NCBI GenBank assembly: GCA_029210775.1
Contig: JARGGI010000003.1
Coordinates: 4,512 to 68,511, forward strand
Reading direction: 5' to 3'
Origin: Patescibacteria group bacterium
GTDB lineage: Bacteria; Patescibacteriota; Minisyncoccia; JAHIHE01; JAGLIN01
Length of the DNA: 64,000 bases
A program made the translations under genes and the position numbers. This document shows, piece after piece, positions 2,357 through 48,239 of the stretch. Numbering within the stretch: the stretch's first letter is position 1; each line of letters begins with the position of its first letter. Under the pieces are notes generated by a model, which did not search any database, was not told the DNA's origin, and was given only the letters and a program-made list of their open reading frames with translations.

Positions 2357-3085
2357 TTATTCCGATATAACAACATTTTTACAATGTTGTCTTATTTTTT
2401 CTGCCATTATTTCAAGTGTTTCAGTTGAATATGAATTTAGTTTTTCTAATCCAACAGCAAGTGTTTTTTCTGGTCTAAAATTTTGGACGGAATAACGATA
2501 TAATTTTGAGAATATTTTTTTATCAATACTATTTATCCAATTAATTATGCCATCTATGTCTTCTTCATTTACATATCCTGGAACAATTGTCGTCCGAAGT
2601 TCAAGTTCGCTTTTGCTATTAGATATTGATTTTATGCTATTTTCAATATTTCCAATAAGATTATCTTTGTCTTTTTTTGTCATAATCTTATATTTTTTAG
2701 GAACAGTTTTTATGTCAATCGCCCAATAATCAACTAATCCACTATCAATTAAACTTGAAACTGCGTAAAAATATGATCCATTTGTATCAATTTTAACCAA
2801 AAATCCCATTTTTTTTATTTTTTCAATAAATTCCCTTAACCCAAGTTGCAAAGTCGGCTCTCCTCCAGTTATGCAAACTCCATCCAAATCCCCTTTTCTT
2901 GACTTTAAAAATTTCAAAATTTCTTCTTCCTTTATTTCAGAATCATAGTCAATTAATTTTGGATCAACAATGTCAGAATTATGACAAAATGGACAACGAA
3001 AGTTACAACCCATTGTAAAAACGGTTGTAGCTATCTTTCCAGGATAATCAAGCATTGTAAATTTTTGAAACCCTCCAATAAACAT
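2357..3085 (-). CDS. nrdG: anaerobic ribonucleoside-triphosphate reductase activating protein (radical SAM)
   Basis: GCNFRCPFCHN is a CxxxCxxC cluster near the N-terminus; size and position downstream of nrdD are consistent. Confidence 0.8.
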   Translation of the reverse strand: MFIGGFQKFTMLDYPGKIATTVFTMGCNFRCPFCHNSDIVDPKLIDYDSEIKEEEILKFLKSRKGDLDGVCITGGEPTLQLGLREFIEKIKKMGFLVKIDTNGSYFYAVSSLIDSGLVDYWAIDIKTVPKKYKIMTKKDKDNLIGNIENSIKSISNSKSELELRTTIVPGYVNEEDIDGIINWINSIDKKIFSKLYRYSVQNFRPEKTLAVGLEKLNSYSTETLEIMAEKIRQHCKNVVISE

Positions 3086-3280
3086 ATTTTAATTTAACAC
3101 AACTTAATAATTAACTTCTCTATTTAAATTACAAGATTCTATTATTTCTCTCAAGAAAGATGTTTTGTAATTCAAAGTATAATTATATTAAAAATAAAAA
3201 ATTACAAGCTGGAAGACTATTTGCAATTTAATTTATTGTAATTTGATTTTTATAAAAGCATAATATTTTCATAAATAAAA

Positions 3281-5023
3281 TTATACTTCAACGGTCGCAG
3301 TGATTATGTCGGGATATTTATTAACATCTTTCTTTGCCAGTCTATAAGAAGTTCCCTCTCCTGGAGTTGCTTCAAGATTATAGAGTCCACCAGTTTCTTC
3401 TTGATATTTTACAATTCTGTCTCGCATAAATTCCAAAACCTCTTGAGCAAACTTGTTACCCTTTTTTGTAGTAAGATTAACTTTTTTGCCTTGAAAATTT
3501 AGTAAAGATTCGTTCATTCCAATTATTCCAATTGTTGAAAAATGATTACTCCAATATTCTCCTCGTTGAAGTTTAATATTAGCAAGAAAATGTTTTGAAT
3601 ATGGATATAACCCTTTTTCCGTAAAATTCTCCAATGTCTTTCTTTTTATTTCTAAACTTTCTTTTGCAAGATCCATAACCTTGCTTAGTCTGTTAAAAAA
3701 TTCTTTTTTATTTTTTGCCAAATAACCAATTCTTGGTAAATTAATTGTCACAACTCCAATTGAACCCGTGAGTGGATAAGCTCCAAATAAACCTCCTCCA
3801 CGCTTATAGAGTTCTCTATTATCAAGACGCAAACGACAACACATTGATCTTGCATCTTCTGGTTTCATATCGCTGTTTACATAATTAGCAAAATAAGGAA
3901 TTCCATATTTTGCTGTCATTTCCCATATTGGCTCAAGATTTGGGTCATCCCAATTAAAATCCTTGGTTATATTGTATGTTGGAATTGGAAAGGTAAAAAC
4001 CCTACCAGAAGCATCGCCCTCTAACATAACTTCTGCAAAAGCCTTATTTAAAAGACTAATTTCATTTGAAAAATCTTTATATTGTTCTTTTTGAAGAACA
4101 CCTCCAATAACAACAGCTTCATCTGCAAGAGTTGATGGAACAGTTAAGTCCATCGTAATATTTGTAAAGGGAGTTTGAAAACCAACTCTTGTAGGAACAT
4201 TCATATTAAATACAAATTCCTGAATTGCTTGTTTAATGTCCCTATATGTAAGTTGATCATACTTAATAAATGGAGCAAGTAATGTATCAAAATTTGAAAA
4301 AGCCTGTGCCCCAGCAGCTTCTCCTTGTAATGTATAAAAGAAATTAACAACCTGTCCCAATGCCGATTTAAAATGTTTTGGTGGCTTACTCTCACTTTTT
4401 CCGCTAACGCCACCGAAACCATTTGATATTAAATCTTTTAAATCCCACCCACAACAATAAACAGCCAAAAGTCCTAAATCATGAATGTGAAAATCTCCCT
4501 TATTATAACTATCTCTTATTTCAGGAGGATAAATTTTTTCAATCCAATATTTAGAAGTAACAACATTAGCAATATAATTATTAAGTCCTTGTAATGAATA
4601 GGACATATTGCTATTTTCTTTAACCTGCCAATCAATTTCCTTTAAATAATCATCAACTAAATCGACAGATCTTTTCAAAACATCTTGACTTTCTCGAAGA
4701 AGCCTATGTTGTTCGCGATATATTATATAAGCCTTTGCAGTTTCAATATAATTCTCTCTGATCAAAAAACTTTCAACTATATCCTGCACCTCTTCTACTG
4801 TTGGAATTTCAAGCTTTAATCTACCTCCACCATTTCTAACTATAAATCTTTTATTTATCTCACATTCAACTTTTTTTGCAAGATCAAGTGAATTTCTTTT
4901 TGAACCTTCACCTGTAGCACTAAAAGCTTTGTAAATTGCGCTAACAAGTTTATTTTTTTCAAATTTTACAACCCTGCCATCACGCTTTCTTATTTCCTTT
5001 AATTTTATTTTTTTTAAATCCAT
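3281..5023 (-). CDS. nrdD: anaerobic ribonucleoside-triphosphate reductase, class III, with N-terminal ATP-cone; C-terminally short
   Basis: ATP-cone at the N-terminus (KRDGRVVKFEKNKLVSAIYKA); core motifs FHIHDL, SMCCRLRLD and GVVTINLPRIGYLAK match NrdD. The ORF ends at ...EATPGEGTSYRLAKKD..VEV, where the canonical protein continues into the Zn-ribbon and RVCGY glycyl-radical segment. Confidence 0.8.
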   Translation of the reverse strand: MDLKKIKLKEIRKRDGRVVKFEKNKLVSAIYKAFSATGEGSKRNSLDLAKKVECEINKRFIVRNGGGRLKLEIPTVEEVQDIVESFLIRENYIETAKAYIIYREQHRLLRESQDVLKRSVDLVDDYLKEIDWQVKENSNMSYSLQGLNNYIANVVTSKYWIEKIYPPEIRDSYNKGDFHIHDLGLLAVYCCGWDLKDLISNGFGGVSGKSESKPPKHFKSALGQVVNFFYTLQGEAAGAQAFSNFDTLLAPFIKYDQLTYRDIKQAIQEFVFNMNVPTRVGFQTPFTNITMDLTVPSTLADEAVVIGGVLQKEQYKDFSNEISLLNKAFAEVMLEGDASGRVFTFPIPTYNITKDFNWDDPNLEPIWEMTAKYGIPYFANYVNSDMKPEDARSMCCRLRLDNRELYKRGGGLFGAYPLTGSIGVVTINLPRIGYLAKNKKEFFNRLSKVMDLAKESLEIKRKTLENFTEKGLYPYSKHFLANIKLQRGEYWSNHFSTIGIIGMNESLLNFQGKKVNLTTKKGNKFAQEVLEFMRDRIVKYQEETGGLYNLEATPGEGTSYRLAKKDVNKYPDIITATVEV

Positions 5024-5210: not shown

Positions 5211-6512
5211 TTAGTTTTTTTTCATTTTTTTTCTTATAAATGCTGGCACATCATATTCATCATCAGAACTTACGGAATTAATTTGAGACGAAAATACATT
5301 TTTCTTAATCTTCTGCTCATCCACATTTCTTTTCAAGTTTTTATTTATAGTTTCAGAAATAGAACTGTTTAAATCTTTTTTTCCGTCCATAAAACCCATT
5401 TCTTCTTCATCTTTTTTAAGCATTTCATCTGATTCTTCTTTGTACACTTCTTTGATTTCTTCTTTGGCTTCTCTTGGTTCTTCTTTAATTTTAATTTCAT
5501 TATTAAAACTTATAATTCTTTCTATATCTTTATTAATATTCTTTCTTCCATTATGCATTCCTTCAAATCCACTTGCAATAACAGTCACTTTTATCTCTCC
5601 TTTATTTAAGCTTTCATCATGTATAGCACCAAAAATAACCTTTGCTTCATCGTCAATGAATTCTGTTATAATTTTTGCAGCATCATTAACTTCCATCATT
5701 GTAAGATCAGCTCCACCACTTATATTAAATAGCACACTTTTTGCACCATCAATTGATAATTCCAAAAGAGGACTATTTATCGCTTTTTTGGCAGCAACAA
5801 CAGCCCGATCTTCTCCTGACGCCTTTCCAATTCCCATGAGAGATGGTCCTGTATTTTGCATAACAGATCTAACATCAGCAAAATCCACATTTATAATTCC
5901 AGGAGTGATTATAAGATCAGAAATCCCTTGAACCCCTTGTCTTAGAATGTCATCAGCAATTTTAAATGATTCTAAAAGCAAAGTTTTTTTATCTATCACT
6001 TGAAGAATTCTATCATTAGGAATTGTTATTATTGTATCCACATGATTTATTAAGTTTTCCAATCCCTCTTCTGCAATTCGCTTTCTTTTGATTCCTTCAA
6101 ATGAAAATGGTTTAGTAACGATTGCAACTGTCAAGGCATTTGCTTCTCTTGCAGCTTCAGCAATAATCGGTGCGGCTCCAGTTCCTGTCCCACCTCCAAG
6201 ACCACAAGTTATAAAAACCATATCAGTATTTTTTAAAACATCTTGAATTTCATCTCTATTCTCCTCAGCTGCTTGCCGTCCTATATCAGGGTTCATTCCT
6301 GCACCAAGACCTCTTGTTAAATTTTTCCCAATATGTATTTTTTCTGCAGCTCTACAATGATGTAAATCCTGAGAATCTGTGTTTATGGCCACAAAATCAA
6401 CTCCATTTAAACCTGCATCAATCATCCTGGTTATTATATGATTTCCACTGCCACCAACCCCAACAACCTTGATTCTGGCAAATGTTTCAAACTCAGGTTT
6501 AATTTCTTTCAT
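5211..6512 (-). CDS. ftsZ: cell division GTPase FtsZ
   Basis: Tubulin signature GGGTGTGAAPIIAEAARE; N-terminal KVVGVGGSGNH; acidic C-terminal tail. Confidence 0.95.
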   Translation of the reverse strand: MKEIKPEFETFARIKVVGVGGSGNHIITRMIDAGLNGVDFVAINTDSQDLHHCRAAEKIHIGKNLTRGLGAGMNPDIGRQAAEENRDEIQDVLKNTDMVFITCGLGGGTGTGAAPIIAEAAREANALTVAIVTKPFSFEGIKRKRIAEEGLENLINHVDTIITIPNDRILQVIDKKTLLLESFKIADDILRQGVQGISDLIITPGIINVDFADVRSVMQNTGPSLMGIGKASGEDRAVVAAKKAINSPLLELSIDGAKSVLFNISGGADLTMMEVNDAAKIITEFIDDEAKVIFGAIHDESLNKGEIKVTVIASGFEGMHNGRKNINKDIERIISFNNEIKIKEEPREAKEEIKEVYKEESDEMLKKDEEEMGFMDGKKDLNSSISETINKNLKRNVDEQKIKKNVFSSQINSVSSDDEYDVPAFIRKKMKKN

Positions 6513-6622
6513 ATATTTAAAAAATTATTTATTACAAATCGCTATAATTCAATATTACCTTTTTTAAAAAATTTGTGCAAGCCACAATTTAAAAAAATAT
6601 CGTTTTACTCTTGATTAAAAAT

Positions 6623-7876
6623 TTACGGTAAAAAAGTTTTGAAGATTTTCCTTATTTTTTGACCAACTCCGCTTAATTGTGGCAATCTAAATCCACCACG
6701 ATTAGATGGAAAAACTCCATTTTCATCAGCTTCCCACATAATAAGACCAACCGCCGTTGCAAAAGAAGGATTATCAACTCTATCAATGATTCCACTCAAC
6801 TCTACTGGGAAACCAATTTGAGCTGGTAATCTTAAAAATTCTTTAGCAATAGAAACCATTCCTGGCATTTTTGCACCACCGCCAGTTATAACAACACCAG
6901 CAGGAAGCATTCCACTCCTATCAATTTTTTTTAATTCATCATCAACTAATGTAAATATTTCCTCTATCCTAGCTTCTATAATTTCAGCTAAATATTTTCT
7001 TGTAAAAACACCTTCTTCTGTGCTATCAATTTCTGAAATATTTATTTTATCTTTTTTGTTTGCTTCTTTTGATGAAGTAGTTCCATACTCAAGTTTTATT
7101 TTCTCAGCAACATCAATTGAAACACGAAGACCTATGGCAATATCATTTGTAATATGTCCAGAACCAACTGGGATAACTACTGAATGCAATATATTTCCAT
7201 CTTCAAAAACTGAGACTCCAGTTGTTCCCTTCCCAATATCTATCACAACAACCCCGAGTTCTCTTTGACGTTTTGATAAAACTGCTTTGGAAGCAGATAG
7301 TGGTGCAAAAACCAAATCATCAATATCTACACCACAACGCTGTACACACTTATACAAATTTTTAATAAATGGTGACATACCCTCAATAACCAAAGCATTA
7401 ACTTCCAGTCTAACCCCATTCATCCCAACTGGATCTTTTATCATTTCTTGTCCATCAATTGTATAATTGCAAGGTATTACGGCAATTATCTCTTTATTAT
7501 TTGATACTGAAATGGCTTGTGATGCATTTATAACTCTATTCATATCTTCTTCGCTAATTTCTCCATCAGCCCTTGAAACTGCAACGACACCCTTAGAGAA
7601 TTGAGAATATATATGATTTCCATTTATACTTATATAAGCATGTTCAACTGGAACACCAGCGGTTCCTTCAGCAAGTTCTTTTGATTTATTTATAGCGTTT
7701 ATTGTTTCTTCAATATCAACAATAACGCCATTATTAATTCCTGATGAAGGCGCTATTCCAACTCCTAAAATTAATGGTTTTGAATCTTCTCCTTGCTTCT
7801 GAGAAATTATTGTTCTTACCAAACTAGATCCAATATCAATTCCTGCTAAAATGTCTCCTCTTGACATAAAATTCAT
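6623..7876 (-). CDS. ftsA: cell division protein FtsA (actin-like ATPase)
   Basis: GIDIGSS phosphate-1 motif, VVITGGGA and the overall actin fold; directly upstream of ftsZ. Confidence 0.9.
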   Translation of the reverse strand: MNFMSRGDILAGIDIGSSLVRTIISQKQGEDSKPLILGVGIAPSSGINNGVIVDIEETINAINKSKELAEGTAGVPVEHAYISINGNHIYSQFSKGVVAVSRADGEISEEDMNRVINASQAISVSNNKEIIAVIPCNYTIDGQEMIKDPVGMNGVRLEVNALVIEGMSPFIKNLYKCVQRCGVDIDDLVFAPLSASKAVLSKRQRELGVVVIDIGKGTTGVSVFEDGNILHSVVIPVGSGHITNDIAIGLRVSIDVAEKIKLEYGTTSSKEANKKDKINISEIDSTEEGVFTRKYLAEIIEARIEEIFTLVDDELKKIDRSGMLPAGVVITGGGAKMPGMVSIAKEFLRLPAQIGFPVELSGIIDRVDNPSFATAVGLIMWEADENGVFPSNRGGFRLPQLSGVGQKIRKIFKTFLP

Positions 7877-46015: not shown

Positions 46016-47311
46016 TTATTCACCGAAAATTTTGGCATTCATCGCAATTTCTTTGAGTATTGTCTGCATAAACCTACATTTTTGCCTATCTATCTCCTTG
46101 CCGGAGATAATCTGGAATGCCGGACAAGGACCGCCGCAAATATGACGTGCTTCGCATTTACTACACTGGCTGATTCTCTTAATAGGAATATTCATTTTCC
46201 CCTTGAAATTAGTCAGAAGGACATCATTCCAATTTTGAGAGCAAAAAGACAAGTGCCCCTCAGTGCTAATCGAAGCCATTATATACCCATTATTAAACAT
46301 ACAAGGACAGTGGCGCTTAATATTATTTGCTAAAGAAAAAAGTATCGGCGACGCTGCGGAGTCTATTGTAACTTTATTTTTCCTAGCAATACGTACAAGC
46401 TTCACTAATATTTGTGCATATTTTTCTCCATCAATATTCCATGCCAAAGACCGATAATGAAATGGTGTGTTTATCGTTATCGTTTTAGAAGGAAATGTTT
46501 TTAATGTGCCACGAAAAATTTTCGGCAATTGATCCAAAAAACCGGCATGCGGAGTTATAAGAACATGCGTATCTATTCCCGCTTTTATTAAACGATAGTA
46601 ATTATGTTTTGTGTCCTTAAAACTGCCACGCCCGTTTTTATAAATCCTGAATTTATTGTTAATATTTTCTGGCCCATCTATAGAAACTCCAATTTTAAAA
46701 TCATTCTTCTTAAAAAACCTTATCATATTATCATTAAGAAATGTAAGGTTGGTTGTCATTGTATAAAACGGCTTAATCATCTTCCTTGTTTTGACAGCTT
46801 CATTAACCATGTCTACTGTCCGTTTGATATGATCAAACCTAATCAATGGCTCACCCCCAAAAAAATGATACGTAATTTTTTCTGATGTTCCGTAAGAAAT
46901 TGTTTTCTTAATTACAGTCTCAAGTGTAGCATGAGACATTGTTTTTAAATTATTACGATTCTTCGTAACAAAACATTCGGGGCATTTTAAATTACACTCC
47001 TCAGTAAGAGCAATTCTAAAAGCACGGATATCTGGGTTTAAATTGAAAACTTTCGGATAAGGTATAGATTTCGATCGACTAAAAAAACCAAGCTCGTCAA
47101 GTTCTTTAAGCACACGCCATGCCTCCTTTTGTTTAGAAAGTGGCATGGAAATTATTACCTTTTTTGGATCTCTGGCAATTTTAAAAGCGTTTAATATGAC
47201 AAGATGAGAAGAACCGACTTCCGCATAATTCAGTGTCTCTTCATCAAAAATAGTGATCTTCCCTCTTGATCCGGAATAAACCCGAAAAGGATGAGCTGAT
47301 ATTTTTTTCAT
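46016..47311 (-). CDS. radical SAM/SPASM enzyme with a ~110-aa N-terminal extension (RRE/PqqD-like position) before the CxxxCxxC cluster
   Basis: CNLKCPEC at aa ~115; C-terminal SPASM motif CSKCEARHICGGPC; start trimmed to MKKISAHPFRV so that it begins 4 nt after the stop of the upstream rSAM (the track ORF 46016..47410 includes an in-frame overlap). Confidence 0.8.
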   Translation of the reverse strand: MKKISAHPFRVYSGSRGKITIFDEETLNYAEVGSSHLVILNAFKIARDPKKVIISMPLSKQKEAWRVLKELDELGFFSRSKSIPYPKVFNLNPDIRAFRIALTEECNLKCPECFVTKNRNNLKTMSHATLETVIKKTISYGTSEKITYHFFGGEPLIRFDHIKRTVDMVNEAVKTRKMIKPFYTMTTNLTFLNDNMIRFFKKNDFKIGVSIDGPENINNKFRIYKNGRGSFKDTKHNYYRLIKAGIDTHVLITPHAGFLDQLPKIFRGTLKTFPSKTITINTPFHYRSLAWNIDGEKYAQILVKLVRIARKNKVTIDSAASPILFSLANNIKRHCPCMFNNGYIMASISTEGHLSFCSQNWNDVLLTNFKGKMNIPIKRISQCSKCEARHICGGPCPAFQIISGKEIDRQKCRFMQTILKEIAMNAKIFGE

Positions 47312-47315
47312 ATAA

Positions 47316-48239
47316 TTATTTCCAAAATCTAGGATTATCAAAAAGCGAAACGCAATGAACACCGAAACAATTAGGTAGTTTTTCACTTTTCGATAATATA
47401 TTATTATCAATATTAGCTATTATCTCAGAAACCGGATCATTGAATAGATTACCCAGTTTTATATCTGGCCGATGGAAACACGGCGTCAAATCACCTTCGG
47501 CGCTACAAACAAAATACTCCTTACCCATACAACAGAGGGCGTTCGGTAATAGATTCTTGTTATTAAAAATCGCTTCCGTAAGCGCTATATAATCCTTTAT
47601 ATGCGTTGATTTATTTTTTTGCGAAATTTTTTTTATGGCATTAAAAATAATATTGTCTTTATTCTCTGTATTTAATTGCTGCATTTTTCCTTTTGGAATA
47701 AAGACTTCTTGAAATCGAATATCCGAAATACCAAGACCTTGAAGCCAATTAATAGTTTCATCTAATGTGGAAGCATTTTTCTTTGTTACTACCGTCGTCG
47801 TCGCCACATTTCGATAGCCACGCGAAATCAATCCCTTAATAGCATATACGGTGTCATCAAATCTACCACGTTGTTTATTGTGTACTTCTCTTATATGAGA
47901 ATCTATGGAAATATCAATCCTGTCCACATTGAGCCTTATTATCGTATCCAAATCGGCATCAGTAAGAAAAGTTGCACTGGTGTTTATTATTACCGGAATT
48001 TTTTTCTTTTTTATTTCACGAATAATAATATATGTTTCTTGCTTTAATTTTAAATGCAAAGGTTCGCCACCGGTTAAAATAACTTTATCAAAATTAAGCG
48101 CTTCTATTTTATCAGCAAAAATCTCAGCTTTATCTGGACTAATTTTTGAGGCTACTCGTTTTTGATATCCAGTCGCATAAAAACAATAGGCGCAACTAAT
48201 ATTACATAAATTATTTACCATCAAAAATAAACAGCGCAT
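47316..48239 (-). CDS. radical SAM enzyme with a short twitch/SPASM-like C-terminal Cys cluster
   Basis: CNISCAYC at aa 12-19; C-terminal CCMGKEYFVCSAEGDLTPC...CFGVHC. Confidence 0.8.
   Translation of the reverse strand: MRCLFLMVNNLCNISCAYCFYATGYQKRVASKISPDKAEIFADKIEALNFDKVILTGGEPLHLKLKQETYIIIREIKKKKIPVIINTSATFLTDADLDTIIRLNVDRIDISIDSHIREVHNKQRGRFDDTVYAIKGLISRGYRNVATTTVVTKKNASTLDETINWLQGLGISDIRFQEVFIPKGKMQQLNTENKDNIIFNAIKKISQKNKSTHIKDYIALTEAIFNNKNLLPNALCCMGKEYFVCSAEGDLTPCFHRPDIKLGNLFNDPVSEIIANIDNNILSKSEKLPNCFGVHCVSLFDNPRFWK

Follow-up and report, generated by a model that had tools for sequence, protein, structure and literature searches.

A probable two-polypeptide class III ribonucleotide reductase in Patescibacteria with a separately encoded glycyl-radical subunit

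The class III ribonucleotide reductases (RNRs) are oxygen-sensitive enzymes for the synthesis of DNA precursors. In all of those matched here by sequence among solved structures (those of phage T4, T. maritima, P. copri and one more), the active site and the glycyl radical share a single chain. Catalytic subunits split into two polypeptides have been described for the other classes, in class I for the NrdA of phage Aeh1, which is active as alpha-a plus alpha-b, and in class II for NrdJa/NrdJb (PMC3267527, PMC2988022). In phages nrdD is frequently broken up by introns, inteins or endonuclease genes, as in T4 with its group I intron or in phiAS4 with its fragments (PMC3653736), and 'fractured genes' are known to employ split inteins (PMC2677866). 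Among the glycyl-radical enzymes, spare-part radical proteins are reported for the formate lyases only (June 2026 review, PMC13450708). The present analysis concerns a class III RNR gene, here called nrdD-N, in a 64,000-nucleotide stretch of contig JARGGI010000003.1 from a Patescibacteria group bacterium (the whole 64-kb stretch is referred to as the window). Very probably the enzyme is a class III RNR composed of two polypeptides, of which the window encodes the large subunit, together with the activase, while the radical subunit (nrdD-C) is encoded outside the window. No published description of a split class III RNR was found in a literature search, from whose coverage most subscription-journal papers were missing, so that this absence is no proof; gene fission as such has its precedents in the class I and class II enzymes.

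The window locus shares with the single-chain NrdD/NrdG systems of E. coli, phage T4, T. maritima (4COI/4U3E) and P. copri (8P23) the same profiles, an ATP-cone, a barrel, a cysteine finger loop and an adjoining nrdG (Table 1), but it differs from them in that the chain is broken some 130-145 residues before the C-terminus and the radical-bearing portion is encoded by a gene of its own, which in relatives lies at a distance of hundreds of kb. The initial annotation of the window had proposed that the NrdD open reading frame (ORF) stops ahead of the zinc ribbon and the glycyl-radical segment, with roughly 150 residues missing, and both points hold: the matches to NF006126 (positions 3-552 of 684, 874.5 bits against a cutoff of 548), TIGR02487 (1-452 of 581, 439.5 bits against a cutoff of 326) and PF13597 (1-435 of 562) all end at the seam, leaving some 127-132 profile positions absent, and the stretch from YPDIITA to the end measures 141-151 residues in full-length relatives, which makes the estimate a close one. 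The polypeptide terminates four residues beyond ...KYPDIITA, past which full-length relatives continue through a linker of 4-13 aa into PYYTNSxQLP.... The alignment with class III RNR through the finger-loop cysteine region, also claimed there, is borne out by the match of SMCCRLRLD to ...SCCRL... of T. maritima, and C400, C401, R402 and L403 are invariant across 23 full-length relatives. As had likewise been observed, CxxC pairs and a glycyl-radical motif are absent from the ORF, which has five cysteines (54, 190, 191, 395 and 396), none of them paired. The sequence RIGY within GVVTINLPRIGYLAK (residues 431-434) was considered as a radical motif and rejected, being a barrel-core site that is also present in full-length relatives, whose true ...SR(V/I)VGY motif lies about 260 residues C-terminal of it. 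Judged by the features of the NrdD family, the barrel with its finger-loop cysteine and the adjoining NrdG are present, the final barrel elements are absent, and the C-terminal zinc ribbon and the glycyl-radical motif RVxGY are missing from the chain. Neither a motif scan of six-frame open stretches of at least 30 aa nor tblastn with C-terminal domains from full-length relatives (three queries) located the missing domain in the 64-kb window. The downstream gene, described from the outset as an intact nrdG, is indeed so (Table 1).

In relatives the missing part exists as a free-standing gene. When the last 131 residues of P0073, the closest full-length relative (724 aa, 75% identical over the N-part), were used as a query, the best 120 of 2171 matches were short proteins without exception. 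Of the 138 C-piece sequences retrieved, comprising these best 120 matches and their cluster members, 84 have a Met start, YTNS within the first 40 residues and an R(V/I)(V/I)G(Y/F) motif. Their leaders are 3-40 aa long (median 16) and mostly Lys-rich and run into PYYTNSxQLP, after which the fully read C-pieces continue with ...GGTVxH...TPTFSxCPxHGY...CPKC...CEVYSRVVGYLRP. The C-pieces of relatives, 129-160 aa in length, thus carry in trans the zinc-ribbon cysteines (...CPxHGY...CPKC...CEVY) and the glycine loop SRVVGYLRP, in the same order, ribbon before loop, as single-chain NrdD. Many of them lie on contigs of 5-105 kb, and therefore are not cut genes. Pfam recognises in them the NRDD family PF13597 only and no PFL-type Gly_radical domain. 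The small piece scores 195 bits on NF006126, below the cutoff of 548, it is deposited under the label 'hypothetical protein', and NCBIfam has no model for it. A HMMER search with the small piece in a library of 50%-identity representatives, where fused proteins or fragments stand for most clusters, yielded one additional stand-alone example (P0285). No stand-alone C-piece was established in phage genomes, where all 14 matches fell under an annotated full-length nrdD or in an unannotated record. Three distant NrdD C-terminal sequences (P0284, P0296 and P0299), mostly gene fragments, run on past the glycine loop into a domain of about 80 aa with CPNC(K/R), which we take to resemble the glutaredoxin/thioredoxin fold.

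The two pieces tile the NrdD family exactly. On PF13597 they occupy positions 1-435 and 426-562, and on NF006126 positions 3-552 and 549-683 of 684. On the 651-residue T. maritima NrdD (4COI) the small protein covers residues 524-646, following on from the 105-510 aligned to the window ORF, and on P. copri NrdD the N-piece extends up to residue 599 and the small protein covers 604-735. In the P. copri enzyme the barrel core comprises residues 123-671 and the glycyl-radical domain residues 676-739 (PMC11226230), and by these limits the small protein consists of the last ~70 core residues together with the entire radical domain. The P. copri radical domain is highly dynamic relative to the core and is expected to be mobile largely as a rigid body (PMC11226230). 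As the seam lies in a linker that varies from 4 to 13 residues in fused relatives, and the radical domain is mobile, a break at this point should be tolerable and a separate radical polypeptide is mechanistically plausible.

Both pieces have been found on a single scaffold. Scaffold_1 of ENA assembly ERZ23498665 (831,018 bp) bears an N-piece that shares 90% identity with the window ORF (P0003; + strand, ~332.4-334.1 kb) and a C-piece (P0244; 156 aa, 'hypothetical protein KAT63_00170') at ~798.9-799.4 kb on the - strand, about 465 kb away. Two metagenome-assembled genomes have near-adjacent NCBI accessions for their N and C proteins (MCK4591909/MCK4591836 and MCK4799536/MCK4799483), which suggests that each pair stems from the same submission, and P0005 (N) and P0140 (C) are both within one metagenome assembly. 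Among the 80 loci closest to P0140 in species-representative genomes there were 12 stand-alone C genes, one adjacent split and 67 loci classed as fused, one of which (L099) is actually broken into several ORFs. The stand-alone C gene lies downstream of prfA in 12 of 12 cases, and ftsE-ftsX comes next in all 10 loci that reach far enough. This prfA/ftsX neighbourhood is not present in the 64-kb window, so the absence of the small gene from it is to be expected. In one relative (L022; JAHYJV010000001.1, a contig of 80,963 bp) two tandem nrdD-C copies of 154 aa stand at 6001-6465 and 6590-7054, between prfA and ftsE, identical over all 465 nt and with a repeat unit of 589 nt; the radical-subunit gene may have been duplicated very recently here, or else the repeat is an artefact of assembly. 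It may also be recorded that both halves adjoin cell-division genes, the N-piece coming right after ftsA-ftsZ and the C-piece right before ftsE-ftsX (relative L012, 6619-8324).

The large piece is conserved in its truncated form. A protein search gave more than 70 clusters of homologues, 577-585 aa long and 78-91% identical, annotated as Parcubacteria, Pacebacteria or Patescibacteria and drawn from independent ENA, JGI, NCBI and Logan assemblies. In all parsable homologues of the window's clade (clade A, a Patescibacteria/Paceibacteria clade) the distance from DIITA to the end is 1-9 residues, and the clade, recovered in 199 of 200 bootstrap replicates, comprises members of 577-585 aa or, with an internal insert, of ~900 aa, sharing a common end point. 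The gene order of the window's minus strand, ftsA (6623-7876), ftsZ (5211-6512), nrdD-N, the 195-nt gap, nrdG, a DUF167 gene and a comEC-like gene, is that of its clade-A relatives, and in the window and all eight clade-A N-piece loci examined ftsZ-nrdD(N)-nrdG follow one another with no C gene between. Strong purifying selection acts on both pieces: by the Nei-Gojobori method the ratio of nonsynonymous to synonymous substitution (dN/dS) is 0.035-0.046 for nrdD-N, at dS of ~0.7-1.9, and 0.040 for the C-piece, the value for nrdG being 0.13-0.16. An insert of ~320 aa, intein-like by eye, follows ...PTRVGFQ in P0014, P0016, P0044, P0049 and P0053 of clade A and in P0108 of the adjacent-split clade described below; in P0014 and P0044 it starts C(V/I)SEDTEIL and finishes ...FITGN before TPFTN, and in P0014 Pfam recognised no intein or endonuclease domain at E <= 0.01. 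The window ORF lacks this insert, the equivalent site lying at ~4160-4175, between ...RVGFQ and TPFTN (residues ~280-289).

Taken together with these observations, a split enzyme with a separate glycyl-radical subunit, which the initial annotation had listed beside a pseudogene and an assembly artefact, is the reading that gains from the free C-pieces of relatives, the exact tiling and the same-scaffold pair. The gene for the small piece in the window's own genome would lie outside the window, as judged by the 12 of 12 related species and the one scaffold. The fission site would be a surface linker between ...YPDIITA and PYYTNS..., and the small piece of ~150 aa would comprise a short Lys-rich leader, the last ~70 barrel residues, the zinc ribbon and the glycyl-radical loop ...CEVYSRVVGYLRP. 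The two polypeptides are envisaged as assembling non-covalently to complete the barrel, by fragment complementation; NrdG with S-adenosylmethionine would take the hydrogen atom from the glycine in SRVVGYLRP of the small piece, and the radical loop would then come to lie beside the finger-loop cysteine contributed by the large piece, as it does in the single-chain enzyme. Several points weigh against this interpretation. The small gene of the window's own genome has not been seen, the material being a 64-kb window; co-occurrence on one contig amounts to a single case, the other links being accession adjacency and a shared metagenome; and the association of the pieces and their activation in trans we infer from sequence. 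With a portion of the barrel core in it, the small piece may by itself be unstable or not open to activation, and an AlphaFold2 model of the fused P0073, built on a 23-sequence alignment, was too poor to judge the seam or the interface (mean predicted local distance difference test score 55.8, predicted template modelling score 0.39).

The closest functional parallel, proposed at the outset, is GrcA/YfiD, the spare part of pyruvate formate-lyase (PFL), and it holds in part. The likeness lies in a small, autonomous, free protein with a presumably disordered leader and a glycyl-radical module that is homologous to the C-terminus of its partner and presumably activated by the partner's activase. 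GrcA, however, is a spare that backs up a PFL possessing its own radical domain after oxygen cleavage, whereas here the small protein carries the sole radical domain; since the large piece has none, the small protein would be obligatory. It also differs from GrcA in holding part of the barrel core, some 70 residues, and the zinc ribbon, and in belonging to PF13597 rather than to the PFL type. Aeh1 NrdA and the gammaproteobacterial NrdJa/NrdJb resemble the present case in that the catalytic subunit consists of two polypeptides that must reassemble, for which activity has been demonstrated in Aeh1. In those systems, however, the pieces are adjacent, the Aeh1 gene is split by a homing-endonuclease gene and a stable protein radical is on neither piece, whereas the enzyme considered here belongs to class III, its seam is free of mobile elements and the clade-A pieces are dispersed, those of the sister clade being adjacent with a plain spacer. 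Interrupted phage nrdD and fractured genes have elements between adjacent fragments and a product that is spliced or of unknown functionality; no such element occurs at this seam.

The relatives of the window suggest how the split may have arisen. The fused P0073 locus has the order ftsZ-nrdD(724 aa)-mazE-PIN-nrdG, the mazE-like antitoxin and PIN-domain toxin pair between nrdD and nrdG being located at 8259-8913 in L016 and 3836-4490 in L017. A sister clade of truncated proteins (581-614 aa, ~70% identity) has an nrdD-N of 608 aa, a plain AT-rich spacer of 110 nt, an nrdD-C of 145 aa that starts MSQKNNAKVEPYYTNS, and nrdG. Bootstrapped neighbour-joining trees (200 replicates) were made separately for the N half and the C half, and they have the same topology, with the fused P0073 nesting between the two split clades. 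The window clade was recovered in 199 (N half) and 90 (C half) replicates, the adjacent-split clade in 193 and 200, and the window clade together with P0073 in 195 and 180; the two split clades stood together without P0073 in 2 and 0. By the congruence of the trees, the relocated C-piece belongs to the lineage itself, as the second half of its nrdD, and is not a foreign acquisition. Either fission took place twice at the same linker, or it took place once and was followed by re-fusion in the P0073 lineage, as far as the trees can tell. The series from fused through adjacent split to dispersed split documents, for an essential enzyme, the fission of nrdD and the relocation of its second part in small-genome bacteria, and the window's clade has lost the C gene from the nrdD-nrdG site, the gene now being found at prfA/ftsEX. 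Because nrdG has remained beside the N-piece, the move would not be explained by one inversion that broke within nrdD. Relics of duplication followed by decay were sought and not found, there being no N-domain traces upstream of the small gene and no C-domain traces in the nrdD(N)-nrdG spacers; the sole match was the second intact small-gene copy of L022. One locus of an otherwise fused clade (L103, 3001-5166; P0113) shows nrdR, a 592-aa nrdD that ends in ...EPY, then after 21 nt a C-terminal ORF of 121 aa, and nrdG, the break being at nearly the same linker. A recent fission, the third of its kind, might account for it, as might a nonsense mutation or an error in sequencing.

A variant of the two-polypeptide reading, which we regard as possible but rather doubtful, is that the small piece is a diffusible, exchangeable 'radical cartridge' and not a permanently bound fragment. 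NrdG would then activate the free 17-kDa protein, which would dock into the open barrel of the large piece and, after oxygen cleavage at the glycine, be exchanged for a fresh copy; the supply of the small piece would be controlled separately from its locus beside ftsEX, the large piece being beside ftsAZ. In functional terms such an arrangement would parallel class I RNR, whose radical-generating beta subunit is separate, as well as the repair of PFL by GrcA. The possible uses of a split, namely cheap replacement of an oxygen-cleaved radical piece and separate control of dosage, are hinted at, and no more, by the ftsAZ and ftsEX neighbours and the tandem copy. Were the exchangeable form the true one, the two fissions at the same linker (or fission and re-fusion) and the tandem small-gene copy would reflect selection and not neutral drift.

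Of the explanations that dispense with a two-polypeptide enzyme, the one that fares best, improbable though it is, holds that the large piece works without a canonical glycyl-radical piece, alone or with another radical donor, and that the C-piece of relatives has a separate role. The C-piece gene does lie in another neighbourhood (prfA/ftsEX), and the window does encode a second radical-SAM protein (464 aa, 46016-47410, - strand). This protein, however, resembles SPASM peptide maturases, whose families it matches below cutoffs only (best TIGR04064, 118 against 519 bits), and is not of the glycyl-radical-enzyme activase type; nrdG stands beside the N-piece with no other evident substrate, the C-piece supplies the very barrel elements that the N-piece lacks, and the N and C halves co-diverge. 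To our knowledge, no glycyl-radical enzyme functions without its radical loop.

It is very unlikely that nrdD-N is a decaying pseudogene left after the loss of anaerobic ribonucleotide reduction. Some 130 essential C-terminal residues are absent with no replacement in the window, and truly degraded nrdD genes do occur in related genomes, one in four or more ORFs (L099, 395-2545) and another in three ORFs with its nrdG cut to 90 aa (L104, 2436-4816). As these two loci illustrate, decay or low-quality assembly in the NrdD family brings multiple breaks and a damaged activase, whereas nrdD-N has an identical clean end point across more than 70 clusters and the low dN/dS given above at considerable synonymous divergence, its nrdG is intact and under selection, and a matching C-piece is kept under selection in the same genomes. 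The pseudogene offered in the initial annotation can on these grounds be set aside.

The chance is just as slight that a single-chain NrdD is regenerated from the pieces, whether through a split intein or through intron halves that splice in trans. Introns, inteins and split inteins are particularly frequent in RNR genes (PMC3653736, PMC2677866), and some clade members have the intein-like insert elsewhere in the N-piece. The N-piece tail of 1-9 residues, however, leaves no room for an N-intein, and none of 45 C-piece leaders inspected ends in His-Asn, the next residue being Tyr or Phe (or Trp after VPW) and not Cys, Ser or Thr. Pfam shows nothing but NRDD (and the ATP-cone) in the two pieces, there is no Rfam intron in the window and both pieces are framed by start and stop codons of their own.

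Some Patescibacteria reassign UGA, and the initial annotation was not in a position to exclude an artefact. That the truncation is an assembly or sequencing error, or that its stop is bypassed by an alternative code, read-through or a frameshift into a downstream exon, is nevertheless the least probable reading of all, as the stop is TAA, the neighbouring long genes are intact under table 11, the spacer is closed in three frames and has no C-domain similarity, no intron family was detected with Rfam, and the same truncation at the same linker recurs in independent ENA, JGI, NCBI and Logan assemblies, including the 831-kb scaffold.

The coordinates of the locus are collected in Table 1. The gap between nrdD-N and nrdG had been described as AT-rich and devoid of ORFs, and with stop codons in all three coding-strand frames this description stands. 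No similarity to the C-domain or relic of it was found in the spacer by tblastn, a promoter scan gave nothing exceeding shuffled sequences, and there was no terminator-like site, the predicted fold being no better than that of shuffles (z = +0.69). Rfam applied to the whole window returned two tRNAs only, with no intron and no match in the spacer. Among the window and its relatives the nrdD(N)-nrdG spacer ranges from 68 to 195 nt and its sequence is poorly conserved. Within it, at 3123-3244, AAATTACAA / TTGTAATTT arms of 9-12 nt occur four times as direct and inverted repeats upstream of nrdG (~3126-3134, 3165-3176, 3199-3208 and 3236-3244); these may be due to chance, given a regional A+T content of 84% and a motif that is not shared by the spacers of relatives. 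Upstream, the window FtsZ has a long Lys/Glu-rich C-terminal extension and a total length of 433 aa, as against 385-404 aa in several relatives.

Table 1. Features of the nrdD-N/nrdG locus, in positions of the window; residue numbers refer to the encoded protein.
Feature	Position	Strand	Remarks
nrdG, radical-SAM activase, 242 aa, intact	2357..3085	-	TIGR02495 NrdG2, 204.6 bits (cutoff 131)
NrdG CX3CX2C [4Fe-4S]/SAM cluster motif CNFRCPFC, residues 27-34	2984..3007	-	From sequence
AT-rich non-coding spacer, nrdD-N to nrdG	3086..3280	.	195 nt, 16.4% G+C; sister clade has the C-piece gene here
nrdD-N, class III RNR large piece	3281..5023	-	580 aa, ATG start, TAA stop; ATP-cone and the greater part of the ten-stranded alpha/beta barrel, with the Cys finger loop
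YPDIITA, final conserved motif ahead of the seam	3296..3316	-	Comparison with full-length relatives
NRDD barrel core portion, residues 136-575	3299..4618	-	PF13597 positions 1-435; aligns to T. maritima NrdD 4COI 105-510
Finger-loop motif SMCCRLRLD, residues 393-401, presumed thiyl-radical cysteine	3821..3847	-	Aligns to T. maritima ...SCCRL...
ATP-cone, residues 10-107 of nrdD-N	4703..4996	-	PF03477, E = 5.9e-17

The consequences of a two-polypeptide class III RNR are both practical and biological. The name now given to the large piece, 'ribonucleoside triphosphate reductase', implies a complete enzyme, and as the small piece falls below the cutoff and is deposited as a 'hypothetical protein', metabolic reconstructions of these reduced genomes would overlook the need for two loci. 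How the activase gains access to a glycine buried in the barrel is an open question for glycyl-radical enzymes, and a natural two-piece NrdD would offer a ready-made system for addressing it, in which the core and the radical module could be handled apart, the latter being open to expression, activation and titration by itself. The arrangement would constitute a conserved, clean and experimentally tractable exception to the single-chain architecture of the class III RNRs compared here.

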